From Candidatus Staskawiczbacteria bacterium (GTDB lineage: Bacteria > Patescibacteriota > Minisyncoccia > Minisyncoccales > Staskawiczbacteraceae), in the NCBI GenBank assembly GCA_903885445.1, contig CAISIO010000020.1:55-64054 (forward strand): a DNA stretch of 64,000 nt, written 5' to 3'. Of this stretch, positions 5,898 to 59,084 are shown one piece after another. Under the pieces are notes generated by a model, which searched no databases, was not told where the DNA came from, and saw only the letters and a list, made by a program, of their open reading frames with translations. Every line of letters begins with the position of its first letter. The stretch's first letter is position 1. Position numbers and translations under genes: made by a program.

Positions 5898-6857
5898 ATG
5901 GATTCACCGCAAAACATAAAAAAACGCGTCAAAAGCGTCAACAACATTAACAAGATTACCAAGGCAATGGAAATGGTTGCCGCTACCAAAATGCGCAAAT
6001 CGCAGGAGATAGCTTTGGCATCCAGGCCCTATGCTTTTGCGGCATTGGATTTTTTGGCGACTGTATCGAGTCTAGACCAAAAGCTTCCGGAATTGTTTGA
6101 GGTAAGGGAAGTCAAAAAAGTTTTGTTTGTGCTGGTTTCTTCCGACAAAGGATTGGCCGGCGCGTTTAACAGTTCGGTTTTCAGGAAATTCGAGAAACAC
6201 GAAAAGGAATATCCCGCCTCCGCCAAAGGCTCCGGCGCGGCAAGGGAAGAAAAGTTTTATATTGCTGTCGGAGAAAAATCTTGCAATTATCTTGAGAAGA
6301 AAGGATTAAATATCGTGCAGAAGTTTAACGCGGTGGGAGACTACACAACGCCAGAGCAAGTCCACCCCATAACAGATTTTATTGTAAAAGGATTTATTGA
6401 AAAAAAGTGGGACAGGGTAATTGTTGTTTCAACGCATTTTAGGTCTGCATTAAAACAAGAGCCGCATGTAAGAAGAATTTTACCAATTGATTTTGACCAT
6501 ATAAAAGAAACCGTTCAGCAAATCATTCCTGAAAGAGGAAAGTTTGCCGAGTTGATAAAAGAGCACCAGATAACTTTTGTGCCAGACAGAATGCGGTTAA
6601 AACAATTTTTAATTGAGCCATCGTCGGAAAAAGTTTTACAGCAATTAGGAGAGCATTTATTTTTTATCCAGTTTTACCATTTGATTTTGGAAGCCAACGC
6701 TTCCGAACATTCAGCTCGCAGAATGGCAATGAAAACCGCTTCCGACAACGCTTCAGATTTAGGAGAAAAATTAAACCTGCAATATAACAAATCCCGTCAA
6801 AGCAAAATCACAACGGAAATTTCAGAAATCAGCGCGGGAGCCGAAGCACTTAATTAA
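5898..6857 (+). CDS. atpG: F0F1 ATP synthase subunit gamma
   Basis: N-terminal IKKRVKSVNNINKITKAMEMVAATKMRK and C-terminal ITTEISEISAGAEAL are the conserved gamma helices. Confidence 0.93.
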   Translation: MDSPQNIKKRVKSVNNINKITKAMEMVAATKMRKSQEIALASRPYAFAALDFLATVSSLDQKLPELFEVREVKKVLFVLVSSDKGLAGAFNSSVFRKFEKHEKEYPASAKGSGAAREEKFYIAVGEKSCNYLEKKGLNIVQKFNAVGDYTTPEQVHPITDFIVKGFIEKKWDRVIVVSTHFRSALKQEPHVRRILPIDFDHIKETVQQIIPERGKFAELIKEHQITFVPDRMRLKQFLIEPSSEKVLQQLGEHLFFIQFYHLILEANASEHSARRMAMKTASDNASDLGEKLNLQYNKSRQSKITTEISEISAGAEALN

Positions 6858-6858
6858 T

Positions 6859-6940
6859 AACGTTCGCCAAACGAATTTTTTCTGCGGGGAGAGCCTCTCT
6901 AGCGGGGCACCCTCTCCTCGAAAAAATTATTTGGCTCGCT
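6859..6940. repeat. Palindromic ~82-bp repeat, copy A (immediately after the atpG stop)
   Basis: AACGTTCGCCAAACGAATTTTTTCTGCGGGGAGAGCCTCTCTAGCGGGGCACCCTCTCCTCGAAAAAATTATTTGGCTCGCT. It differs from copy B at about six positions. The arms GCCAAA..AATTTTTT and AAAAAATTATTTGGC, plus GGAGAG/CTCTCC, form a long hairpin. Confidence 0.75.
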
Positions 6941-6953
6941 TAGAAAATAATAA

Positions 6954-8331
<1,378 letters not shown>

Positions 8332-8333
<2 letters not shown>

Positions 8334-8412
8334 CGCTCGCCAAATTAATTTTTTTTGCGGGGAGAGCCTCTCTAACGGGGCACCCTCTCCTCGAAAAATT
8401 ATTTGGCTCGCT
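8332..8412. repeat. Palindromic ~81-bp repeat, copy B (immediately after the atpD stop)
   Basis: AACGCTCGCCAAATTAATTTTTTTTGCGGGGAGAGCCTCTCTAACGGGGCACCCTCTCCTCGAAAAATTATTTGGCTCGCT. It starts inside or next to the TAA stop exactly as copy A does. Confidence 0.75.
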
Positions 8413-8424
8413 ACCTAGCTTTTT

Positions 8425-8667
8425 ATGGAAATATCAGTATACAGTCTTAAAAACGTTTTGTTCCAGGGCGAAGCCTCGCTTTTGAATTGCAAAACAGTGA
8501 CAGGGGAAATTACGATTTTGGATAATCATGATTCATTGATTACTGTTTTGTCTGCCGGAGTTATCAAGATTGTTGATGAAAATAAAAAGGACAATTATTT
8601 TCCTGTAAAATCGGGATTTTTAGAGGTAAAACCCGGCAACGAAGTTAGGTGCATTGTTGAACAATAA
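8425..8667 (+). CDS. atpC: F0F1 ATP synthase subunit epsilon (80 aa, beta-sandwich domain only)
   Basis: Last gene of the operon. The N-terminal domain pattern fits (LLNCKTVTGEITILDNHDSLITVLSAGVIKI). The C-terminal helical hairpin is absent. Confidence 0.75.
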   Translation: MEISVYSLKNVLFQGEASLLNCKTVTGEITILDNHDSLITVLSAGVIKIVDENKKDNYFPVKSGFLEVKPGNEVRCIVEQ

Positions 8668-8688
8668 TAAAAGAGGTAAAATAGAATA

Positions 8689-9231
8689 ATGACGTGGGAA
8701 TCTTTCTATAATTTTTTTGGGATCAAGGATTTTATTTATTTTATTTCTTCTTCACAGATACAGGATATGCTTTTTCCGGTAAAGGTGGTTTTTGTTTTTT
8801 GTACCGCGTATTTTTTGTTTTTTGTTATTTATTTCATGATAAACTCCACATGGCTTCAGTATAAATTTTTGGAAGACGTGAGCGAATTTTTTTCTTGGCA
8901 GGCATACGGGCAAAGGGAAACAAACAAACAGTGGAGCAGGATTAAAAAGCGCACCGAGTCTGGCGCAGAATCAGACTATAAATTGGCGATAATTGATGCG
9001 AACGATTTTTTGGAGGAAGTTTTAGACAGCAGAGGATATGATGGCAACGACCTTAAAGAGAGCATTGAAAAAGCCGGTAAAATGATAGCGCCGATTTTAG
9101 ACGACGTGCTGAAAGCCTACGAGATTAGGAACTCCATTGTCTATAATCCGGACTTTAAAATATCGGCCGAGCAGGCCAAGAAAATCCTGGAAACCTACGA
9201 GTCCGCGGTTAAGAGTATTGGAATGGGATAA
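8689..9231 (+). CDS. Hypothetical membrane protein
   Basis: 180-aa ORF with one strongly hydrophobic segment (VVFVFCTAYFLFFVIYFMI) and a charged soluble tail. No family recognised. Confidence 0.55.
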   Translation: MTWESFYNFFGIKDFIYFISSSQIQDMLFPVKVVFVFCTAYFLFFVIYFMINSTWLQYKFLEDVSEFFSWQAYGQRETNKQWSRIKKRTESGAESDYKLAIIDANDFLEEVLDSRGYDGNDLKESIEKAGKMIAPILDDVLKAYEIRNSIVYNPDFKISAEQAKKILETYESAVKSIGMG

Positions 9232-9242
9232 AAAATACAACA

Positions 9243-9272
9243 AAAAAACCGCTTTCAAAAGCGGTTTTTTTG
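9243..9272. terminator. Bidirectional intrinsic terminator
   Basis: AAAAACCGC-TTTCAAAA-GCGGTTTTT, with A-runs and T-runs on both sides. Confidence 0.6.
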
Positions 9273-9394
9273 TGCTAAATTTAAATTAGAGAACTGGAGC
9301 GATTAAAAGCAGAATTGTGGCCAAAGCGACCAAGCTTATTAAAACGGTCCAGATAATTTTAAATAGTTTTTTTCTTTTCATATATTTTTTATTT

Positions 9395-9909: not shown

Positions 9910-11598
9910 ATGAAAGAAGGGCCGGAAAATAATCATCCAAGCGAAGAGTCGGCGCCGGAAGCCGCGCCTTTAACGTATGTTCCCTTTGATGCAGGAGAGG
10001 AATTGAAAAATATTAAAAATTTACCGCCGGAGAGAGAAGATTCTCCCGAAATAATGAAAAGAGCCGTGAGGAGAGACCAAGTGTCGGATTTTAAAGATAA
10101 TTTGATGCGGCAGAAGGAAGGAATAGGCAAGACAATTGGAGATTTGCGCGCCATGGTTGAGTCTGTTCCTGACGCGTCACAGGAAGCTTTAATGCGAAAA
10201 GTTTTTGAGGTAGCTCCCGGGTACAGGTTTACGCAACAACAGGAAGGTATTTTTAAAAATGGGGTTGAGCAGTATTGCCAAAAACATCTGGCGGTGGAAA
10301 AATATAGGGAAATGTACCCGGATGACAATGACTTGTTTGAGGCGTGTTTTGGCAGAAAACCAAAAGGTAAGCTTGAGGTTGTAAAAGGACCCATGACCTT
10401 ATGTTTTCGCTGTTTTTCTGAAAATGATTATGCTTTTGTGAGGCATTTTTATGCGCACGGAGGCGATGAAAAAAAATTTGAAGCAGAGTTTGCAAACGAC
10501 TCCAATGATTCCGGGGGTGTGGCTCTTCCAGATGTAAAGATTGAGGAGTTGGCGGGAACGATTACCGCCGAAAACGCAATGGAAACTAGGTCCGGTCAAA
10601 TAGTGGAAGTTGTTGAGAAAACAAAAGAAATTCACGGCAAGTCGTTGGAGCTTTTTTCAAGTTCTCAAAAAGGAGATGTGGATATTGAGGTGAAAGATGT
10701 TGGCAAATGGAGGCTGGCAATTAAGCCAGGTTACGATTCGGCAAGAATAATATTCTTAGACTTAAACGAGGATGGCAAACCCCCGGTTTTTGATGTAGAA
10801 ACAGTTGAGGCTACTGATGAAATGCAAAGAAAGGGAAGATATGAGGGAACCATTAAGGATGTTGATGGCGGAAACGAAATGGGAAAAATAATGGTCTCTC
10901 TGAAGGTTGGCGAAAAGCGTTATGGTCTCGTGGAAGTAAGCGAGGGGTTCATCAGAATTACAGACGACTCTCCAGATGGCATGATTGTTAAATACCATGC
11001 GAAAAAATTAGTTCAGGTGTCAAAGGAAGAGGTGTCTAAGAGTATAAGGACTCACGAAGACCAGCACCAGTTCAACAAACTATTTCAGCCCCTCGAATTG
11101 GGGCAGGCATTACGTATAAAAGCAAGGGCCACAGTTGCGAAAGCAAAAACCATAGAGGATGCAACGTCAAAAATAACACATGATTTTGTAAGATTGGAAA
11201 GGCGGGAAATGGGTTTTGATTCCTGCGCGAGGGATGAAATCCTTGCTCATTATAAAGGAGGGAGGGAAACGGGCGAGATTTTTGATAATCTTACAAAGTT
11301 AAAAATTTATAATTATGCGGACCAATTTAGGCCAGAAATTGATAAAATTCCAGCCCGAGCAACGGACATATTAAAAATGGTAGCTGAGGTTGATCATTTT
11401 CAGATTGGCGAGTTAGATGTCCGGCCCCATGTTGATGCGGTGTTTGGGAAGGAATATAAAACCGACCTTAAAAAATGGCTCGATTCGATTTCTAAGCTTG
11501 AACAAAAAGGATATACCAGAGACGAAATTGTTAATTTACTTTACCAGGAGCCGGTTAACTCCTGGCCAAACCTTGCCAGGAGGATTGGTAAAAAGTAA
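9910..11598 (+). CDS. Hypothetical 562-aa soluble protein with an HExxH motif
   Basis: The long ORF was trimmed to ATG 9910 because the track start at 9853 lies inside tRNA-Gly. HEDQH is encoded at 11053-11067. There is no signal peptide or TM segment, and no family is recognised. Confidence 0.7.
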   Translation: MKEGPENNHPSEESAPEAAPLTYVPFDAGEELKNIKNLPPEREDSPEIMKRAVRRDQVSDFKDNLMRQKEGIGKTIGDLRAMVESVPDASQEALMRKVFEVAPGYRFTQQQEGIFKNGVEQYCQKHLAVEKYREMYPDDNDLFEACFGRKPKGKLEVVKGPMTLCFRCFSENDYAFVRHFYAHGGDEKKFEAEFANDSNDSGGVALPDVKIEELAGTITAENAMETRSGQIVEVVEKTKEIHGKSLELFSSSQKGDVDIEVKDVGKWRLAIKPGYDSARIIFLDLNEDGKPPVFDVETVEATDEMQRKGRYEGTIKDVDGGNEMGKIMVSLKVGEKRYGLVEVSEGFIRITDDSPDGMIVKYHAKKLVQVSKEEVSKSIRTHEDQHQFNKLFQPLELGQALRIKARATVAKAKTIEDATSKITHDFVRLERREMGFDSCARDEILAHYKGGRETGEIFDNLTKLKIYNYADQFRPEIDKIPARATDILKMVAEVDHFQIGELDVRPHVDAVFGKEYKTDLKKWLDSISKLEQKGYTRDEIVNLLYQEPVNSWPNLARRIGKK

Positions 11599-27758: not shown

Positions 27759-30700
27759 ATGATTAAAAATAAAAAATATTTTTCGTTATTTTTGGTAGGA
27801 GGTTTTTTTGTGCTGGCGAGTTTTCTATTTGGAGCAGGGGAAGTCCGCGCAACTGGCACTCTGACCCAGATTACCGCAACGCCTTCAACTGTAAAGGCTG
27901 GAGTTAATAGCAACTATACAATCAGTTTTGTGACTGAGACCAATATCGCAGCCGGAGGAAAAATCCTAATTCAGTTTCCAGCCGGATTCGATGTGAATGG
28001 GTCTGACAATTTGTTAAATTATACGGATATCGATCTATCCGACGATTCGACGGATTATGCGCTAGGATCATCGGCATCTGGGTCTACCTGGGGGGCATCT
28101 GTATCCGGCCAAGTGGTTACAATTACTTCTGGCACAGGGACGATTGACGGCGGATCGGTTGTGGTGGTAGAAATTGGACTGAATGCCACCTCCGGTGTTG
28201 CAGGAGATAAGCAAATAGTTAACACAAACACAGTTGCAAATAACTACCAGCTGACAATAACAACTAAAAATTCTTCAAATGTTATTTTAGACGGACCAAC
28301 GGGAACAATATATTTTCAAATTTTTGCTTCTAATTCTGAAACTAATATCGACGGAGTGTATTATCTTAGAGACGACGCTTATACTCATTATCAAAATAAT
28401 GGCGACACTGGCGCCGCCGGACTAGTTATCGGGACCTTATCAAGATCAGCCCCCGCATCCAGTGAAATTATAAGCGGATACTCTGGCAACTATACAGATT
28501 TTTACTTTAATGAAAACGGCACTTATACCCAGACAAACCAGCTGACCAATATTTATTATCATGTTTGGTGGGAGGCTAATAATAACCAAGGAACATTGGG
28601 TTACGATAAGACTGGCTATCATAGTTTTGGTAACGTTACCACAGAAAATTTCGCGACGGATGTTACTAATTCTCCAAATAAAGTTGGAGAATATTATCTT
28701 TATGCCGGCAAGCAAAACCTTGCCTCCCCTCAATCTATTTTTGGGAATGCTATTTATAATTTGGGGATAAAGTTCACGAGTTGGAGCCAATATCCAAATG
28801 TCATCTCTTATGCAAATCAGGCTTCTTTCATTATAGTCAATCTTCCCGATGACGCTACTCTTCGAGCTCTTGATTCGGATGGCGATGGATTGTCTGACTA
28901 CGATGAATTATTCACTTATTATACCAATCCATACGGCGCGGATACCGATAGTGATGGATTCAGTGATAAATATGAAGTTGATAATAGCTTGGATCCAGTT
29001 GATCCAGAGGTCGTGCCAGTTTTCGGTAAACCGTTACTGAAACAATATAGCGGTGAAGCGGGGTCAAGCGATTTGTTTAATGAATTTGGTACTTCTGTCT
29101 CAACAATTTCCGACATAGACGGAGACGGGAAGGAAGATGTTTTGGTTGGTAGCGGAGGGGATGGATATGAGCACCCCGGCTATGCATATATTTATTCCTC
29201 TGGCACAGGAAACGTAATTAAGAAATACGAAGGAAGTAAGGACTATTATTTGTATGACGGCGATGAGAATTATGACGGTTTTGGTTATTCTATATCATCG
29301 ATAGGAGATGTGGATGGAGATGGCAAGGATGATGTTTTGGTGGGGGCGCCTTATGCTGGCGTTGTGACACCTAATGATGGGGACGGCATCGTTTATATTT
29401 ATTCCTCTGGCACAGGAGATCTAATCAGACAATATGATGGCACAGCAGACGGGGGTTATTTTGGTTCTTCTGTCGCATCGATATCCGACATGGACGGAGA
29501 CGGGAAGGATGATGTTGTGATTGGGGCCTATGCTGCTAATTCAGGGGATGGCGCAGTCTATATTTACTCTTCCGGCACGGGGAGTCTTATAAAACAATTT
29601 AATCCGGAAGAAGCAAGCGCCGGTTGGTTTGGTTCTTCTATTGCGTCGATACTAGATATTGACGGAGACGGGAAGGAAGATGTTGTAATAGGCGCAAAAA
29701 GAGCAAGTCCTGGCGGGAAATATGACGCTGGTTCTGTTTATATTTATTCTTCCGGCACGGGTAATTTAATTAAACAGTATAACGGAGGAGTCGCCGGTGA
29801 CTATTTTGGTACTTCTGTCTCAACAATTTCCGACATAGACGGAGACGGGAAGGAAGATGTTTTAGTGGGAGACCCTGGCGACACCTATCCCGTGGTGGGT
29901 TCTGTTTATATTTACTCTTCCGGCACGGGTAATTTAATTAAACAGTATAATGGCGCAGTAGTATGGGATTATTTTGGTCATTCTGTCTCTTCTATTTCAG
30001 ATGTAGATGGAGATGGCAAAGATGACGTTGTGGTGGGGGCGTTTGGGGCCGATTTAGGTATTCATCAAAATGCTGGCGCAGTCTATATTTACTCTTCCGG
30101 CACGGGGAGTCTTATAAAACAATATAATGGCACACTAAATGACAATGGCTATTCTAGCCGTTTTGGCGTTTCGGTGTCTTCAATAGGAGATGTGGATGGA
30201 GATGGCAAAGATGACGTTGTGATTGGAGCTCCTTATTACCAAATAAGCGGCGTCGATCGTGGCTCGGTTTATATATATTCATCTGTTGGTAATATACCCC
30301 CTCAATCTTGGTCCAAAGGCTCCACTAAAGCCAACGTATTTGATCTAGACGACTATTTCATAGACTCCAACAACTCCACTATTCCAGCCAGAAACCAGAC
30401 GGTAATATATACGGCATCCGCGTCAGACAACGAAATTGATGTATCCATCGGCGTAGACAACAAGGTCTCTTTTTCTGTCAGCCCCGGTTGGTCAGGCGGA
30501 ACGGAGTCGGTAACATTCACCGCCACAGATTCCACTGGCCTGTCTTCTGCTTCCAATCCCGTCCAGCTCACTGTGATTCCTTCCCCCTCTAGCGGAGGAG
30601 GAAGCAGTTATACTCCATCCCCTTCATCGGCCCTGGCTCCAACTCCAACTTCCGAACCATCTTTAATCGTAATTTCTGTCCCTGTCACCGTCGTAGTTTC

Positions 30701-33062: not shown

Positions 33063-34238
33063 ATGAAAAGAATTTATTTAGATTACGCGGCCACAACTCC
33101 TGTTGATCCGCGAGTTGTAAAAGTGATGCAGGAGTTTTTGTACCCCTCTGGGCACAGGCCTGAAAACTTTGGCAACACAATGTCTTTGCACTCTTTTGGA
33201 CAGGAGGCAAAATTTGCTTTGGACCAATCAAGGCAGGTTTTGGCTAGTTTAATTAATGCCGACCCGAACGAAATAATTTTTACAGGTTCTGCAACCGAAA
33301 GCAATAATTTGGCGCTTAAGGGAATTGCTTTTGCCAATAAATCAAAAGGGAATCACGTAATTATTTCTTCTATAGAACATCCGTGTATTATGGAATCGGC
33401 TAAGTGGCTGGCAAAAAATGGTTTTGAAATAACAAAATTGCCGGTTAATAAATTTGGTTTGGTAAATCCCGAAGATGTAAAAAAATCCATAACTCCAAAA
33501 ACAATTTTAGTCTCTATAATGCACGCTTCAAATGAAATTGGCACAATTGAGCCTGTTTCTGAAATTGGCAAGATCTGCCGCGAAAAAGGAGTTTATTTCC
33601 ATACAGATGCCGTACAATCTTTTGGTAAAATTCCAATTGACGTGAAAAAAATGAATATTGATTTATTGACTGCCAGTTCACACAAGATGTACGGGCCCAA
33701 GGGCGTGGCTCTCTTCTATATAAGAGGCGGGGTCAAAATTGAGCCTATTTTACACGGAGGCGGACAGGAAAATGGGCTGAGGAGTTCAACTGTAAATGTT
33801 CCGGCAATTGTTGGTTTTGCAAAAGCAGCTGAAATTTGCAGGAAAGAAATGAAGCAAGAATCAGCGCGAATCTCAAAGCTAAGAGACAAATTAATAAAAG
33901 CAGTTTTGAAAATAAAAGGTTCTCACTTAAACGGCCATCCAAAAAAACGTTTGCCTAATAATGCGAATTTCCGTTTTGATTTTATAGAGGGTGAGTCGCT
34001 ACTTATGAGATTGGATTTGGAAGGAATTGCATGCTCTACGGGGTCTGCGTGTTCGTCTATTAAGCTGGAGCCAAGCTATGTTTTGCTGGCGATTGGGTTA
34101 AAGCACGAGCAAGCTCACGGCTCTTTGCGCGTTTCGTTGGGAAGATGGACCACGGAAAAAGAAATAAATAAATTAATAAAAGTTCTGCCTGAAATTGTAA
34201 AACAAATAAGGCAAATTTCACCATATGGCAAAAAATAA
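33063..34238 (+). CDS. Cysteine desulfurase (NifS/IscS type)
   Basis: PLP lysine motif SSHKMYGPKG and catalytic loop STGSACSS. Confidence 0.9.
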   Translation: MKRIYLDYAATTPVDPRVVKVMQEFLYPSGHRPENFGNTMSLHSFGQEAKFALDQSRQVLASLINADPNEIIFTGSATESNNLALKGIAFANKSKGNHVIISSIEHPCIMESAKWLAKNGFEITKLPVNKFGLVNPEDVKKSITPKTILVSIMHASNEIGTIEPVSEIGKICREKGVYFHTDAVQSFGKIPIDVKKMNIDLLTASSHKMYGPKGVALFYIRGGVKIEPILHGGGQENGLRSSTVNVPAIVGFAKAAEICRKEMKQESARISKLRDKLIKAVLKIKGSHLNGHPKKRLPNNANFRFDFIEGESLLMRLDLEGIACSTGSACSSIKLEPSYVLLAIGLKHEQAHGSLRVSLGRWTTEKEINKLIKVLPEIVKQIRQISPYGKK

Positions 34239-34635
34239 TAAGATTTGTGGCGGTCTTTATACTGAAAAAGTTATGGAGACATTTAAAAATCCTCATAACT
34301 ACGGCAGGATTAAAAACGCCGACGGAATTGGAAAGGTCGGCAATCCGGTTTGCGGAGATGTGATGTGGCTTTATATTAAAGTGGCCCAAAATAAAAAGAA
34401 AGAAGATTTTATAAAGGATATAAAGTTCGAGACTTTCGGTTGCGTGGCGGCAATTTCCACCAGTTCCATTATTACAGACTTAGTAAAAGGAAAAACAATT
34501 AAAGATGCGTTGAAAGTCACAAAGGATAACATAGTGGAATCTCTTGGGGGATTGCCTAAAATAAAATATCATTGTTCTGTCTTGGCGGTTGACGCGCTAA
34601 AAGAAGCAATTAAAGATTACAATGCCAAAAAGTAA
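34225..34635 (+). CDS. Fe-S cluster assembly scaffold (IscU/NifU N-terminal type)
   Basis: Three conserved Cys contexts: GNPVCGD, FGCVAAI and YHCS. Confidence 0.88.
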   Translation: MAKNNKICGGLYTEKVMETFKNPHNYGRIKNADGIGKVGNPVCGDVMWLYIKVAQNKKKEDFIKDIKFETFGCVAAISTSSIITDLVKGKTIKDALKVTKDNIVESLGGLPKIKYHCSVLAVDALKEAIKDYNAKK

Positions 34636-35731
34636 GCCGAAAATTGTTGTAGGGATGTCGGGAGGAGTGGATTCGAGCGTGGCTGCGGTACTGTTAAAGC
34701 AGGCCGGTTTTGATGTGATTGGAATATTTATGAAGTTTTGGAAAGACGGAAAAAGCTCGGATAACAGATGTTGCTCTGTAGAATCGGAAAAGTTAGCTAG
34801 ATTGGTTGCCAAAGAAATTGGCATTCCATTTTATGTGTTAAACGTGGAAAAAGAATTTAAGAAAAAAGTTGTTGATTATTTCTTGGCGGAATACAAAAAG
34901 GGTAACACTCCAAACCCTTGCGTGGTTTGCAATAAAGAGATTAAGTTCGGATTTTTAATTACAAAAGCGCTTTCGTTGGGAGCGGATTTTGTGGCAACCG
35001 GCCACTACGCGCGCACTTCGCTCGGCAACGAAATTTTTTCTCGTCTCAACCCGTCTGCGGACGGTGCCCATTCACCTCGAAAAAATTTGTTGCCTCGCTT
35101 ACTAAAAGGGGCTGATAAAGAAAAAGATCAGTCGTATTTTTTATGGCAATTAAGCCAGAATCAGCTAAAACATGTTTTGTTTCCGGTTGGAGAATATACA
35201 AAGCCGGAGGTCAGAAAATTGGCAAAGAAGTTTAAATTACCTACGGCAGAAACTCCCGAGTCACAGGAAGTTTGTTTTGTGCAAGACACAACAAATAATT
35301 TTCTAAATAAATATTTAAAAACAAAATCAGGAAATATTAACGATGTAAACGGAAAAGCTTTGGGCAAGCATAATGGTTTGTGGTTTTATACAATTGGTCA
35401 GAGAAGGGGAATCGAGCTCCAACAGGGGCCTTGGTATGTAGTTGATAAAGATTTCAAAAAGAATGCTTTGGTTGTTTCTAAAAATAAAAAAGATTTGGGC
35501 AAAAAAGAATTATTAGCCGGTGAAGTTAGCTGGACTGTCCCACAAAAATTACCGATAAACGCGGAGGTTAAAATAAGATATAAAAGCGAATCAGCAAAAG
35601 CCAAAATTACCAAACTAGCTGGCAATAAAGTAAAAATTATTTTCTCAAAAAGTCAGCGCGCCATAACTCCCGGCCAGTCAGCAGTATTTTACAAAGGAAA
35701 GGAACTACTGGGCGGAGGCATTATTAAATAG
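34622..35731 (+). CDS. mnmA: tRNA 2-thiouridine(34) synthase MnmA
   Basis: PP-loop GMSGGVDSS, NPCVVCN, ATGHYAR and KDQSYFL motifs. A ~17-19 residue surplus lies between GHYAR and LLKG, coincident with repeat copy C. Confidence 0.9.
   Translation: MPKSKPKIVVGMSGGVDSSVAAVLLKQAGFDVIGIFMKFWKDGKSSDNRCCSVESEKLARLVAKEIGIPFYVLNVEKEFKKKVVDYFLAEYKKGNTPNPCVVCNKEIKFGFLITKALSLGADFVATGHYARTSLGNEIFSRLNPSADGAHSPRKNLLPRLLKGADKEKDQSYFLWQLSQNQLKHVLFPVGEYTKPEVRKLAKKFKLPTAETPESQEVCFVQDTTNNFLNKYLKTKSGNINDVNGKALGKHNGLWFYTIGQRRGIELQQGPWYVVDKDFKKNALVVSKNKKDLGKKELLAGEVSWTVPQKLPINAEVKIRYKSESAKAKITKLAGNKVKIIFSKSQRAITPGQSAVFYKGKELLGGGIIK
35018..35099. repeat. Diverged copy C of the palindromic repeat, in-frame inside mnmA
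   Basis: CGCTCGGCAACGAAATTTTTTCTCG....CCTCGAAAAAATTTGTTGCCTCGCT shares both arms with copies A and B (CGCTCGCCAAA..AATTTTTT / CCTCGAAAAA(A)TTATTTGGCTCGCT). Its core differs and contains its own hairpin, CCGTC-TGCG-GACGG. Confidence 0.55.
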
Positions 35732-45224: not shown

Positions 45225-46580
45225 ATGAAAAGCAAAGTTCTATTAGCAGTAGCCATCTTATCAGCGGCATTTTTAGCAGTCGGCGGAGTTGCCTTCGCAG
45301 CAGGAAATCTCCCGCCGGTAATTAGCGGTGTTTCCGGGCCAGTGGTTTTGTCTGTTGGACAAGCGGGGACTTGGACGATTAGCGCAAGTGATCCGGAAAA
45401 TGGAGTATTAAATTATTCAGTTTTATGGGGAGAGCCTGCCACAAAAAGCGCAGCCCCTGTGGTTTATATACAGACTACAACATTTACCCACTCCTACACA
45501 AAACAAGGAAATTATACGGTAAATTTTTCCGTTAAAGACAACGTTGGAAGCATAGCAAAAAGTTCAATAACGGTTAATGTCGCCGGTCCAACCCAGCCTG
45601 CCCCAACTCCCGTTCCAATTTCTTCTATGAAAGTAACTTCGCCGAATGGGGGAGAAACATTGCAGACTGGAAGCACGCAAAGTATTATATGGGCCAAGGG
45701 TAATGTTTCGGTAGCTAGTGTTAAAATAGAACTTTTAAAAGGAGGAGTTCTTGTAAAAACCATTGTGACATCAACCCTGAATAATGGAATTTATAAATGG
45801 GCTGTTCCAACAAGCCTAGCGGTAGGTAATGATTATTACTTGAAAATCAGCGACGTTAAAAACGTTAATACGTTTGATAAGAGCGACAATCTTTTTAGTA
45901 TTGCTAAACCGGTAGTCGCGCCGGCCATAACTAATATTTCTCCTGCGGCCGGTGTTTTGGGCGCCAAGGTGACAATTACCGGTTCCGGTTTTACATCTAC
46001 GGGTAATCAGACTATGTTTTCCTGCCCCGCAGGCGGTGGAGGAGACACAAATGCTCTTTCTGCTAACGGTAAGACAATTTCGACAGCTGTTATTTCGGGT
46101 TTCCCAATTCCAGTGGGTTCGCAGCTAAGCTATCCGCAAAAATGCACGGTAAATGTATCAAACGCAAACGGAACAAGTAAAAGCGTTTCATTCACGATTA
46201 CGGCTCCGCCTGCGGCCAAAGCCTCAATTGCTGTTATTTCACCGAATGGGGGAGAGATATGGCAAATAGGTAGTACACAGAATATTGCCTGGTCTTCGGC
46301 CGGACCAGCCCTTTCAAATGTAAATATATATCTTTATAAGGCAGGGAAAATAGCCAAGACGATTATAGCTAAGGCAAGCAATGCAAAAGGCACATGGTCT
46401 TGGAAGGTTCCGATTAATATAGCGGCTGGCAATGATTATAAGATTAGGGTGGCAAACTATGCGAAAACCACGCTTTATGACGAGAGCGATAACACTTTCA
46501 GTATCGTCAAACCGGCCGCCGGTTTCTTGGGCGGAGTAACGGATTGGTTCTCTTCTTTGCTCAACGCATTCGGCAAATAA
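45225..46580 (+). CDS. Secreted multi-domain surface protein (PKD-like, two Kre9/KNH-like Ser-Thr-rich modules, IPT/TIG-like)
   Basis: Signal peptide. FTHSYTKQGNYTVNFSVKDNVG is PKD-like. SPNGGE(T/I)(L/W)Q.GSTQ.I.W occurs twice. ITNISPAAGVLGAKVTITGSGF is IPT-like. Confidence 0.65.
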   Translation: MKSKVLLAVAILSAAFLAVGGVAFAAGNLPPVISGVSGPVVLSVGQAGTWTISASDPENGVLNYSVLWGEPATKSAAPVVYIQTTTFTHSYTKQGNYTVNFSVKDNVGSIAKSSITVNVAGPTQPAPTPVPISSMKVTSPNGGETLQTGSTQSIIWAKGNVSVASVKIELLKGGVLVKTIVTSTLNNGIYKWAVPTSLAVGNDYYLKISDVKNVNTFDKSDNLFSIAKPVVAPAITNISPAAGVLGAKVTITGSGFTSTGNQTMFSCPAGGGGDTNALSANGKTISTAVISGFPIPVGSQLSYPQKCTVNVSNANGTSKSVSFTITAPPAAKASIAVISPNGGEIWQIGSTQNIAWSSAGPALSNVNIYLYKAGKIAKTIIAKASNAKGTWSWKVPINIAAGNDYKIRVANYAKTTLYDESDNTFSIVKPAAGFLGGVTDWFSSLLNAFGK

Positions 46581-46631
46581 GCAAACAAAAAACTAGGTAT
46601 TTGCCTAGTTTTTTTGTTGTATAATTATTAA

Positions 46632-56096: not shown

Positions 56097-59084
56097 ATGG
56101 AGAAGTTGAGTGTTCCAGCGCTTTCAATTTTGGCAGGAATTATTTTTGCCGGTATTTTTTGCGCCGGCGTTTATGTCCTTGCTTCAACAGCCGGAGTTGA
56201 TGCATATTTTACTCCTGGAGCTACTTTGAACCCGACTTGTACGCCGGGTTCAACTTATTGCACGGTCACTCCGCCGGTTAGCACGTCTTTTTCTTCTGAC
56301 GTTTTAGGTTCCGGTAATTTTTCTACAACAGGAACATTTCACGCAAAAGTAAACGGCACAGGGTATTATGCCGGTGACGCTGATCAGGCTAGTATTTATT
56401 ATGATGGATCTGTTGGCAATCTGGTTATTAATCCCGGGAATGGCGCCAATATATTGACATTAGGAAAAGGAGACCAGGGGACCCTTAAACTAAAGTTTAG
56501 CACAGACAGCACGACGGGAATAATTACATACGTGGATGATGCTGGGCCGTATTTTACTTTTAACAACGATATTAATTTGCTTTCGCATAATTTAACCACA
56601 ACCGGTAAGGGGACGTTTAATACCTTGAAAGTTGGGAGCTCATCGGGAATTATGTATGTTGCGAGCGGAGATGTCGGCATGGAGACAGTATCTTTGCCCC
56701 TTTCTGAAACTGGAGGAACTCTTTCCATGAACCAGGCATCATCAGGAAGCGCGGGGTATCTTTCTTCTTCTGATTGGATTAATTTTAATAACAAAATATC
56801 ATCATCAAATTATGCCGGCATGTCTTCGGCTGGCATACTTTCCTCCAGCGATTGGACGACGTTCAATAATAAATTATCATCGTCAAATGTGGCTAGCTCT
56901 TATTCGGCTGGCATACTTTCTTCCAGTGACTGGACGACGTTTAATAACAAATTATCGGCAGGGTCTACGGCCAGTCAATATAATGCTGGTGTTCTTTCTT
57001 CCAGCGATTGGCTAATTTTTAATAATAAATCGTCCGGTTATTCAATTCTGGCCCCGCTTATTTCCGGCGCCGGCCCCTCAATTTCTATTGGGCAAGCCAA
57101 TTCCTACAATGACGGTTATCTCTCTTCTGTGGACTGGAGTACGTTCAACAGCAAGCTATCTGGTTTGAGTCCCACCAGCCCGCTTTATTCAACGGGTAGC
57201 GGTGACATTAGAATTTATCAAGCCAATGGAACTGGCACAAATGGCTATCTTTCTTCAACAGACTGGAGCACGTTTAATAACAAATTATCGGCAGGGTCTA
57301 CGGCCAGTCAATATAATGCTGGCATACTTTCTTCCAGTGACTGGACGACGTTCAATAATAAATTATCATCGTCAAATGTGGCTAGCTCTTATTCGGCTGG
57401 CATACTTTCCTCCAGCGATTGGACGACGTTTAATAACAAATTATCGGCAGGGTCTACGGCCAGTCAATATAATGCTGGTGTTCTTTCCTCCAGCGATTGG
57501 ACGACGTTTAATGGCAAGGCATCCGGGTCAATTATGGCTAGTTCGTCTAATGCTGGCGTTCTTTCTTCCAGCGATTGGAGCACGTTTAATGGGAAAGTGT
57601 CCTCTTCAACCCTTGCGAACTCGGTTACAGCGGGCCTCCTCACGTCCTCTGACTGGACGACGTTTAATGGTAAGGTGTCTCTGTCAACCCTAGCCAGCTC
57701 GTCTAATGCTGGTGTTCTTTCCTCCAGCGACTGGACGACGTTTAATGGGAAAGCAGCATATTCATTTGGAGCGAATTCTTTTTCCGGCTCTGGAGATTTC
57801 ACGACAACCGGAAAAGTTACAGCGGGTACGATTATAACAGGAGTAAGAGCCGGTCTTTCTGATTTTGCCTCGCTTTCACCGGCTGATGGAGCCATGATGG
57901 TTGATTCAGGAGACGGCGGAAGAGTTTACTTCAGGTATGGAAGCGCGTGGCATTATATAGCTCAAACAGCAGGTTTCCAAATACCTGACTTTGAAACAGT
58001 AGATCCGATTTCGGGAGGCAAAATGCAGGAAGGAGATATTGTTATGGGGCAAGTTGACAATACGTTGGGAGATGGAGCTTTGCACGGAGTTTGGGTAAAG
58101 TGGGACAGCGTTAAAGCGCAGTTATTGGCAGAGCTTAAAGGTGAAAATTTAAATAACGGAGCGTGGGGACAGGGGACTGTTGAGGGAGTTGACACAGTTT
58201 CTCTTTTAGACAAAGTAACAAACGCGCTTTTCTCGTTGGGAATAAGCATTAAAGATGGAATTACAAGTATTAAAGACCTTGCTGTGGAAAAATTTAGCGC
58301 CAAGGTGGCAAGGATTGATAAGCTGGAAATGGTTGATAAGGCAACTGGAGACATTTATTGTACTTGGGTTGAAAATGGCGATTGGCAAAAAGTGAAAGGC
58401 GGTTGCGGCTCATTGGCGGCTGCTGAAACCCAGCCGGTTGAACAGGCGGTTGGGCAGACTCAACTTCAAACAAATGTGCAGACCCAGCAAATAGTTGACG
58501 CGACAACTCAGCTTTTGCAGCAGGGCCAGCAGATATTACAGGATGCGCAAAAAACTTCCGAACAAAGTCGCCAGTTGATAGAAGCTGGCCAGCAGGTTTT
58601 GCAGAATGTAAAGAATGTGGCTGACGACGCAGCGCAAAAAGCAGTCCAGCAGGCAACAAGCCAGATTGAACAGCGGGTACAACAACAGGTCCAACAACAG
58701 CAGCCATCAGACGTAAACTCTGTGGCGGAAATAGCTGACATCAACGTCGCTTATGGCATCGTATTATCAGATATCAATCTTCCTGACAAGGTTATGGTCG
58801 CTTTGTCCGACAATACCGCGCAGGAGGTTGCCGTGGCTTGGGACACCGGAACGCCCGTTTATGATTCGCAAACCCCAGGAACATATGTTTTCTCTGGAAG
58901 CATTGCCCCTCCTTCGAATGCAACTAACCTTAACAACATAAAAGCAAGCGTGAGTGTGGTAGTTGCTGAAAACTTGGCAGAGGAAGAAGACGCTCCATCT
59001 GCGATTAATATCATTCAAAACGCGACGGCTTCTTTGATTAGCAATATGTCTGGTTTTATTAAATCGATAATGCTGGGCCGATAA
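56097..59084 (+). CDS. Membrane-anchored 995-aa repeat protein (tail-fibre-like GxLSSSDWxxFNxK repeats, Gln-rich coiled coil, Big_4-like Ig domain)
   Basis: TM anchor. There are 12 copies of G(Y/I/V/L)L(S/T)S(S/T/V)DW..FN(N/G/S)K. The Q-rich segment reads QQGQQILQDAQKTSEQSRQLIEAGQQVLQ. C-terminal EVAVAWDTGTPVYDSQTPGTYVFSGSI is Ig-like. Confidence 0.8.
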   Translation: MEKLSVPALSILAGIIFAGIFCAGVYVLASTAGVDAYFTPGATLNPTCTPGSTYCTVTPPVSTSFSSDVLGSGNFSTTGTFHAKVNGTGYYAGDADQASIYYDGSVGNLVINPGNGANILTLGKGDQGTLKLKFSTDSTTGIITYVDDAGPYFTFNNDINLLSHNLTTTGKGTFNTLKVGSSSGIMYVASGDVGMETVSLPLSETGGTLSMNQASSGSAGYLSSSDWINFNNKISSSNYAGMSSAGILSSSDWTTFNNKLSSSNVASSYSAGILSSSDWTTFNNKLSAGSTASQYNAGVLSSSDWLIFNNKSSGYSILAPLISGAGPSISIGQANSYNDGYLSSVDWSTFNSKLSGLSPTSPLYSTGSGDIRIYQANGTGTNGYLSSTDWSTFNNKLSAGSTASQYNAGILSSSDWTTFNNKLSSSNVASSYSAGILSSSDWTTFNNKLSAGSTASQYNAGVLSSSDWTTFNGKASGSIMASSSNAGVLSSSDWSTFNGKVSSSTLANSVTAGLLTSSDWTTFNGKVSLSTLASSSNAGVLSSSDWTTFNGKAAYSFGANSFSGSGDFTTTGKVTAGTIITGVRAGLSDFASLSPADGAMMVDSGDGGRVYFRYGSAWHYIAQTAGFQIPDFETVDPISGGKMQEGDIVMGQVDNTLGDGALHGVWVKWDSVKAQLLAELKGENLNNGAWGQGTVEGVDTVSLLDKVTNALFSLGISIKDGITSIKDLAVEKFSAKVARIDKLEMVDKATGDIYCTWVENGDWQKVKGGCGSLAAAETQPVEQAVGQTQLQTNVQTQQIVDATTQLLQQGQQILQDAQKTSEQSRQLIEAGQQVLQNVKNVADDAAQKAVQQATSQIEQRVQQQVQQQQPSDVNSVAEIADINVAYGIVLSDINLPDKVMVALSDNTAQEVAVAWDTGTPVYDSQTPGTYVFSGSIAPPSNATNLNNIKASVSVVVAENLAEEEDAPSAINIIQNATASLISNMSGFIKSIMLGR
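56750..57755 (+). repeat. Coding tandem/segmental repeats inside the 995-aa gene
   Basis: Units of ~75-80 bp encode the DW..FN motif. Blocks ~56830-57000 and ~57310-57480 are nearly identical at DNA level. Confidence 0.8.

Follow-up and report, generated by a model that had tools for sequence, protein, structure and literature searches.

The mnmA locus and its additional segment

The window considered here, a stretch of 64,000 nucleotides (nt) of contig CAISIO010000020.1 (assembly GCA_903885445.1) from Candidatus Staskawiczbacteria bacterium, a member of the Patescibacteriota, encodes the tRNA 2-thiouridine(34) synthase MnmA. Within the mnmA gene lies a palindromic sequence of about 80 nt, referred to here as element C, which lies in frame with the coding sequence of the enzyme. 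The gene is the last of three adjacent and overlapping genes, iscS (Aminotran_5), iscU (NifU_N), and mnmA, which occupy positions 33063-35731 of the window (Table 1). The 369-aa open reading frame (ORF) matches three MnmA Pfam domains (PF03054, PF20259, and PF20258), and its product matches solved MnmA structures in the PDB with E values from 1e-82 to 3e-96. The PP-loop SGGVDS corresponds to residues 13-18. Residues C100, C103, and C218, which are invariant in an alignment of 73 homologues, correspond to D99, C102, and C199 of the Escherichia coli protein, so that the window MnmA is a CxxC variant. The CxxC motif (C100/C103) in place of the DxxC of E. coli is the variant that has been discussed as a [4Fe-4S]-binding type. 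An exact-protein look-up of the window MnmA returned no record.

Across the element, the translation of mnmA reads ...ATGHYAR-TSLGNEIFSRLNPSADGAHSPRKNLLPR-LLKGADKEKDQSYFL. The segment comprises 84 nt where relatives have 15 nt, a net gain of 69 nt or 23 codons, and the five residues of the original turn (IQNGK) are replaced by 28, whose translation would yield tryptic peptides such as TSLGNEIFSR or LNPSADGAHSPR. An earlier interpretation made from the DNA alone (the sequence-only reading) had pointed out an ORF that continues through the repeat and a surplus of residues between GHYAR and LL. Both observations have been confirmed, as the ORF is intact over its whole length and the 28 residues occupy the place of about 10 in solved structures and of 5 in the nearest uninserted relatives. 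The DNA and the peptide that it quoted were also correct, except for a string start at 35019; the element begins with TCGCTCGG at 35018 and ends at 35099, and the difference is inconsequential. The same insert is found in an independent ENA assembly (P0001, 100% identical), which excludes an assembly artefact, and in P0005, the closest allele with this insert, which was compared as protein only. The enzyme had also been described as essential, a description that calls for some softening in light of the dispensability of MnmA for viability in E. coli (PMC11784392).

Table 1. Position in the window of mnmA, of element C and its parts, and of the two copies in the atp operon
Feature	Coordinates	Strand	Evidence or remarks
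mnmA (tRNA 2-thiouridine(34) synthase, CxxC type)	34622..35731	+	369-aa ORF downstream of iscS-iscU
28 codons T132-R159 in place of a 5-codon turn (I-Q/K-N-G-K)	35015..35098	+	codons aligned to those of L001 and of six orthologues with an insert
Element C, full-length palindromic repeat of ~80 nt, core subtype C	35018..35099	+	covariance model, profile HMM, fold
Left arm GCTCGGCAACGAAATTTTTTC, family-conserved terminus	35020..35040	+	inverted repeat, conserved alignment columns
Core hairpin CCGTC-TGCG-GACGG, specific to subtype C	35051..35064	+	centroid fold
Right arm GAAAAAATTTGTTGCCTCGCT, family-conserved terminus	35079..35099	+	inverted repeat, conserved alignment columns
Element A	6860..6940	+ (sense)	covariance model, 87.7 bits; profile HMM
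Element B	8333..8412	+ (sense)	covariance model, 82.4 bits; profile HMM

Element C and the two copies in the atp operon

Element C consists of two inverted-repeat arms (GGCAACGAAATTTTT / AAAAAATTTGTTGCC) around a core, whose own CCGTC/GACGG hairpin, anticipated in the sequence-only reading, is recovered in the centroid fold. The element folds with a z-score of -4.5, and none of 200 shuffled sequences folds equally well. Its local GC content is 0.55 with a negative GC skew, against about 0.37 and a positive skew in the rest of mnmA. A covariance model scores it with 72 bits (E 1.7e-16) in the sense orientation and with 28 bits in the antisense one.

The other two copies in the window, elements A and B, are located in the atp operon. 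The GTTCG terminus of element A lies 5 nt past the stop codon of atpG, and 24 nt separate the end of this element from the start of atpD; the GCTCG terminus of element B lies 2 nt past the atpD stop codon, and its end is 13 nt before the atpC start. Both copies thus start within a few nucleotides of the upstream stop codon, and the atpG stop together with element A spans positions 6855-6940. As a separate observation, AtpD (stop codon and element B, 8331-8412) stops 2 residues beyond its last residue alignable with solved beta subunits, and these have 7-11 additional C-terminal residues, so that the protein's own C-terminal tail may have been displaced by element B.

Searches with short arm sequences were uninformative, because a 20-mer arm with up to 3 mismatches matched only element C itself and a looser 15-mer performed at chance level; full-length alignment and profile methods were therefore needed. 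Elements A and B align with C over the full element, including the core and not only the arms. In the global alignment of A and C, 59 of 85 columns are identical, with a score of 27 compared to -14.4 +/- 4.6 (maximum 3) for 2000 shuffles. A profile hidden Markov model (HMM) was built in a non-circular manner from 32 copies of other genomes, leaving out all window copies and the C-type copy. On the 64-kb window this model recovers A, B, and C with E values of 7e-21, 4e-19, and 2.2e-12, and no other match below E 0.3 apart from weaker reverse-strand matches to A and B. The covariance model with its filters off yields the same three matches, with 72-88 bits in sense and 26-28 bits in antisense. 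A further match of this model at 46566-46610 was rejected as a family member, being an ordinary terminator-like hairpin; the hairpin itself (CAAAAAACTAGGTATTTGCCTAGTTTTTTTG, 46566-46624) only reaches a marginal score (E 0.075).

According to these data, the similarity between the mnmA segment and the atp-operon copies is highly significant. C, which had been proposed to be a diverged copy, represents a separate core subtype and not an in situ divergence of A or B. It could still be argued that the match is due to chance or low complexity, or to an assembly chimera, in what is an ordinary lineage-variable loop, as loop length varies among bacteria and the arms are rich in A/T runs. This explanation can be regarded as refuted by the full-length match to the model of foreign copies, by an alignment score far outside the shuffled distribution, by the presence of the same insert in the assemblies of P0001 and P0005, and by the occurrence of the same core at other loci.

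A family of palindromic repeats in Staskawiczbacteria

A scan for the right-arm pattern over one genome per species (185,579 species) revealed 60 loci, around 29 of them in metagenome-assembled genomes of Staskawiczbacteria or related Patescibacteria; the remaining loci are single chance matches in unrelated taxa. Several copies per genome are common, with 9 in CAINMG01 and 5 in CAIWKF01. Some 40 full-length copies were collected and aligned, and the covariance model contributed about 10 more; leaving aside the three of the window, 236 kb of Staskawiczbacteria loci contain around 50 copies, and all of them, those of the window included, fold as long hairpins. The family occurs in multiple copies and is restricted to Staskawiczbacteria and related Patescibacteria.

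The members of this family hold the arms TTCGCTCGSCAA..TTTTTC and GAAAAA..TTGSCTCGCTT around variable hairpin cores, with the general architecture 5'-TTCGCTCG-S-CAA-n(1-4)-AAAnTTTTTC-[core]-GAAAAAnTTnnTTG-S-CTCGCTT-3'. The unit measures 70-98 nt between the termini TTCGCTCG and CTCGCTT. The element lacks coding capacity of its own, and its arms, of 15-20 nt and more than 85% complementary, resemble the terminal inverted repeats of transposable elements of the miniature inverted-repeat type (MITEs) and exhibit G/C covariation (GGCAA/TTGCC versus GCCAA/TTGGC). The cores, of 25-55 nt, are always hairpins, and at least six versions exist that are unrelated to one another. At no offset did 40 copies show a variable target-site duplication, and only the constant CTCG-type terminal repeat recurs among them.

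Several complete elements lie behind orphan older arms or are nested between them (L043 3793-3899, L007 5270-5352, L033 6615-6716, L036 1126-1225, and L055 319-423), an arrangement suggestive of the insertion of new copies into existing ones, at their core or ends.

Subtype C at other loci and other in-frame hosts

The core of subtype C is also present in intergenic positions, in L043 (5354-5432, with 1 nt different) and in L064 (3672-3756, the same locus being found in L065). Moreover, the gene for the tRNA-guanine transglycosylase Tgt of L066 holds in frame an element of this subtype, about 90% identical, which encodes LALGNEIFSRLDPSADGAHSSRKNLLPRA, and the Tgt of L002, 80% identical to that of L066, shows a 20-residue gap at the element site. 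The same DNA in the same frame in two enzymes of two genomes is the clearest sign of mobility offered by the sequences. A metagenome scan with an exact 23-mer of the C core provided one extra locus, in two contigs, which points either to a rare subtype or to an overly strict pattern.

In addition to MnmA and Tgt, copies are contained in an RNase HII (L058) and in an IscS-like cysteine desulfurase (L020), which raises the number of unrelated in-frame hosts to four. Uninserted orthologues have been shown by DNA for MnmA (L001) and Tgt (L002), and the copies in RNase HII and in the desulfurase are probably inserts as well, judging from a Pfam match split in two in both proteins. All 11 intragenic copies verified by DNA are in sense and open, and the element frame xCG CTC GSC AAx is shared by the 10 intragenic copies in which it was checked (a count that does not include the copy of L068).

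A repeatedly occupied loop in MnmA

Of the 119 nearest clusters of MnmA, with BLASTP identities of 66-81%, 53 have a short, uninserted loop of the form A(R/Q)I(K/Q)NGK-LLKG, and the other 66 have an insert of 4-46 extra residues at this position. The closest relatives, P0002 and P0003, which are 86% identical to the window protein over aligned positions, are uninserted and read ARIQ(D/N)GK. At the DNA level, L001 shows GCA AGA ATT CAA AAT GGA AAA at the site where the window has the 28 codons, with a nucleotide identity of about 85% over the remainder of the gene. The insert is also absent from all solved MnmA structures, in which the loop has around 10 residues. The alignment of orthologues that the sequence-only reading had proposed as a check thus indicates a lineage-specific gain, and the broad conservation that would have spoken against it is not observed.

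Seven further inserted orthologues for which DNA is available (L002, L007, L020, L030, L043, L054, and L068) hold elements of the family at the same junction, with different cores. In L002, L020, and L054, older remnant arms appear beside or around the complete copy, and the copy at L043 3793-3899 mentioned above is cleanly nested. Remnants are also seen at the protein level: P0036 has kept only the arms, P0092 shows ISLA, P0113 shows NKNLLPR, and the insert of P0100 is also reduced. Decay and deletion of inserts are therefore documented.

The loop has also received sequences that do not belong to the family. MnmA of L066, another Staskawiczbacteria genome, holds in frame an unrelated palindrome of the GGGAATGAC type (-39 kcal/mol), and that of L067 holds AAATCCC simple repeats. 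With regard to the former, the GTCATTCCC...GGGAATGAC repeat at 10448-10555 of L066 encodes ..LDSRFRGNDK.., and at least one more copy is present in the locus at about 13380. It can be concluded that this loop is structurally permissive and has been repeatedly occupied across the clade. A neighbor-joining tree of MnmA is too star-like to count independent gains, and sliding-window identity of protein and DNA revealed no donor-like recombination tract, in flanks that are too conserved to be informative.

Predicted structure of the inserted protein

The AlphaFold2 model of the window MnmA, based on the 73-sequence alignment, reaches a predicted local distance difference test (pLDDT) score of 85.8 and a predicted template modeling score of 0.84. 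In the region of interest it shows a strand (130-132), a helix (133-141), a coil (142-159), and a second strand (160-162), and the pLDDT of the insert falls to 82, 56, and 73 in consecutive blocks of 10 residues. Foldseek aligns the model to the MnmA crystal structures 2hma, 2det, 2der, and 2deu, which include tRNA complexes, with TM scores of 0.83-0.87, and in a sequence alignment the insert coincides with gaps within the hairpin VARDEDGTVHM of 9hln. The prediction thus keeps the MnmA fold and places the insert as a low-confidence excursion of a beta-hairpin, with a short helix and a coil between its two strands. Together with the uninserted relatives, this model supports the suggestion in the sequence-only reading that a palindromic insertion may be tolerated as a loop.

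An adaptive role of the insert, as a protein module for a lineage-specific interaction with, for example, the sulfur donors IscS/IscU or the tRNA, might be considered given the position of mnmA directly downstream of iscS-iscU, the use of the same element frame in all the intragenic copies checked, and the near identity of the C-type peptide in MnmA (window and P0005) and in the Tgt of L066. Such a role is nonetheless very unlikely. Peptide similarity tracks the DNA subtype and not the host protein, the peptides inserted in MnmA are unrelated in sequence and in length (a surplus of 4-46 aa), the coil is modeled with low confidence, and the nearest relatives do without the insert.

Orientation, stop codons, and RNA folding

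In a first set of 40 copies, all are in sense with respect to the genes, 32 between co-directional genes and 8 inside genes. The later matches of the covariance model are also in sense, with a single exception, so that around 50 of 51 copies share this orientation. The only antisense copy, in L064, has a C-type core and is located between efp and the gene upstream, the two being encoded on the opposite strand. Intergenic copies usually start 2-10 nt past a stop codon, leave 9-30 nt up to the following start, and are in effect the intergenic spacer.

The sense strand is also depleted of stop codons. Over the three frames of 36 copies there are 22 stop codons in sense and 90 in antisense, compared to 103 +/- 8 after shuffling, a depletion of about 5-fold which affects all three frames; 18 of the 36 copies have the three sense frames open, when 1.1 would be expected by shuffling. 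This asymmetry resides in the mismatched positions of the palindrome. For instance, the left arm reads AATCAAAT, and the perfect complement of the right arm would be AATAAAT, which contains TAA. RNA folding shows no such asymmetry, as the sense strand folds better in 14 copies and the antisense strand in 20, and G-U pairing gave no evidence of a structure at the RNA level. Because both strands fold equally well, strand-specific insertion, or selection against antisense inserts bearing stop codons in a genome that has hardly any non-coding space, would account for the orientation bias more simply than an RNA function.

These features bear on another explanation, in which the hairpin is a selected cis-acting RNA element of the mnmA mRNA, with a role in RNase processing, stability, or translational pausing, as part of a family of functional hairpins between cistrons of mRNAs, and its translation is incidental. 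The almost exclusive sense orientation, the stereotyped intergenic position inside operons such as atp, the compensatory changes that keep arms and cores paired, and the strong folding retained in all mnmA copies with DNA are what such an element would be expected to show. It is nevertheless improbable. Half of the closest relatives lack the insert, many lineages hold decayed or partly deleted versions (P0036, P0092, P0100, and P0113), and the folding preference, which does not favor the sense RNA, is that of a palindrome at the DNA level. Rfam identifies only tRNAs in the window and has no family for the repeat, and a terminator scan calls neither A nor B. Furthermore, one intergenic copy is antisense, and the occupation of the same loop by unrelated and even non-palindromic inserts points to permissiveness at the protein level.

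Origin and fate of the insert

Taken together, these results make it very probable that element C is a copy of a non-coding, selfish palindromic family of about 80 nt, tolerated in frame within mnmA. According to this explanation, the family would propagate within Staskawiczbacteria as a selfish non-autonomous mobile element of the kind of MITEs, repetitive extragenic palindromic sequences (REPs), or Rickettsia palindromic elements (RPEs). One copy has landed in the DNA for the beta-hairpin turn that follows the GHY motif of MnmA. The gene stays open because the sense strand is nearly free of stop codons in the three frames and because the net gain is 69 nt. The element would then be translated as a 28-residue excursion, formed by a short helix and a disordered coil, which in the predicted structure projects from the catalytic domain and would leave undisturbed both the fold and the catalytic residues C100, C103, and C218. 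The insert is probably tolerated, as neutral or nearly so, rather than selected, since its peptide is entirely different from one lineage to the next and, in many of them, has decayed or been deleted. Repeated hits on the same loop may be due both to its structural permissiveness and to a preference of new copies for sites in or near older ones.

As for the mechanism, a hairpin with constant termini, no variable target-site duplication, and a strand bias of about 50:1 would fit a strand-specific process on single-stranded DNA, mediated in trans by a transposase similar to those of the Y1 type or to the REP-associated tyrosine transposases (RAYTs).

Several points weigh against this explanation. 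The mobility of the element is deduced from its distribution, with neither a variable target-site duplication in the 40 copies nor a transposase linked to the family in the loci examined. The junctions T/I/V-SLGN ... LLPR are identical across distant lineages, and one old insertion that was spread or refreshed by recombination or gene conversion could therefore replace the many hits. Since 84 nt replace 15 nt, the event was not a clean 82-nt insertion by cut-and-paste, and either the host codons for K-N-G were lost later or the allele came by recombination. Finally, a role at the RNA level would be compatible with the strong sense bias and with a hairpin that is preserved in every mnmA copy.

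In a broader proposal, Staskawiczbacteria would host an undescribed RPE-like system, defined by a modular element, a sense strand purged of stop codons, strand-specific insertion, and repeated colonization of loops of core enzymes, foremost MnmA but also Tgt, IscS, and RNase HII. This proposal could equally well prove right or wrong. If it is correct, such a system would be a continuing source of variation in protein loops in the ultra-reduced genomes of the candidate phyla radiation (CPR), and the hairpin turn of MnmA would be a natural landing pad common to several unrelated repeat families.

Other repeats in the window

Three other repetitive regions are present in the window. Positions 56751-57760 contain a tandem array with a period of 78 nt, whose copies, of which there are at least 8, are 63-91% identical; it is presumably coding sequence with internal repeats. 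Six to seven diverged direct repeats, spaced 165-207 nt apart and each with GATGGAGATGGCAAGGATGATGTT, are found at 29085-30236 and have the appearance of a protein domain, of the FG-GAP/calcium-binding type, that occurs repeatedly. Lastly, positions 165-372 hold a GC-rich repeat of low complexity (GCAGCCGCC / GATGATG units), very unlike the AT-rich bulk of the window.

Comparison with known systems

To our knowledge, selfish palindromes in frame within housekeeping genes are known from textbooks almost only in Rickettsia. CPR genomes are small like those of Rickettsia, to which they are phylogenetically remote. A search for literature on such elements in CPR/Patescibacteria found nothing relevant. 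RPE-like behavior in free-living or episymbiotic CPR bacteria suggests that these insertions are a general outcome of genome reduction when intergenic space is scant. Moreover, a single loop that has been hit many times represents a natural experiment which shows the protein sites that tolerate around 25 extra residues. Part of the length variation among CPR orthologues (335-430 aa for MnmA in this study) can be derived from repeats, and loops of this origin can inflate protein novelty, split domain matches, and mislead alignments and phylogenies. The orientation bias, in turn, provides a testable handle on the transposition mechanism.

MITEs share with the Staskawiczbacteria element a small size, the lack of autonomy, terminal inverted repeats, transcription within operons, and an occasional fusion in frame with host ORFs. 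The Staskawiczbacteria element, however, lacks a variable target-site duplication and is far more biased in orientation than is typical of them, and the loci examined revealed no parent insertion sequence whose ends match its own.

REPs are sequences of 20-40 nt, strictly extragenic, with a conserved 5' tetranucleotide and often arranged as inverted doublets. The hairpin, the constant terminal motif, the lack of target-site duplication, the position after stop codons, and the strand bias bring the Staskawiczbacteria element close to REPs, to bacterial interspersed mosaic elements (BIMEs), and to the REPIN-RAYT systems. In contrast to REPs, it is a single hairpin unit of about 80 nt which is also intragenic, and thus departs from them in size and in location. 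A gene of the Y1_Tnp type, the only one seen, does occur in L067, a related Patescibacteria contig (8618-9364, RAYT-like, 248 aa), flanked by a different REP family (TGGGGTGTCGGACACCCCA). With its flanking perfect 24-nt palindromes (CATTGGGGTGTCGGACACCCCAATG), this gene shows the arrangement of a classical REPtron (8579-9390, 6549-6580, and 10613-10636). No Y1_Tnp gene was found next to an element of the family in the few loci with gene tables.

RPEs, which were reportedly described by Ogata et al. in 2000 (Science 290:347), offer the closest resemblance. As set out in PMC10969869, they are palindromic repeats of about 150 bp that sit in frame within numerous unrelated genes, keep an open frame, and are apparently compatible with protein structure; the same review mentions occasional in-frame intragenic copies of bacterial MITEs (ERIC, Correia/NEMIS, and BOX). 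The Staskawiczbacteria element resembles RPEs in being a short palindromic repeat with multiple copies in a small genome, both intergenic and in frame within unrelated housekeeping genes, with an open element frame, uninserted orthologues, and inserts that appear compatible with the fold. It differs from them in its length of about 80 nt, its presence in Patescibacteria, its sequence, which is unrelated as far as can be judged, its swappable cores, a sense strand with few stop codons in any of the three frames, the near-absolute sense orientation, and the single MnmA loop that has been hit by several subtypes as well as by unrelated elements. It would thus be an analogue of RPEs and not a member of them, common descent not being expected given the Patescibacterium host, and it extends the RPE-like kind of in-frame palindromic elements to a new phylum.

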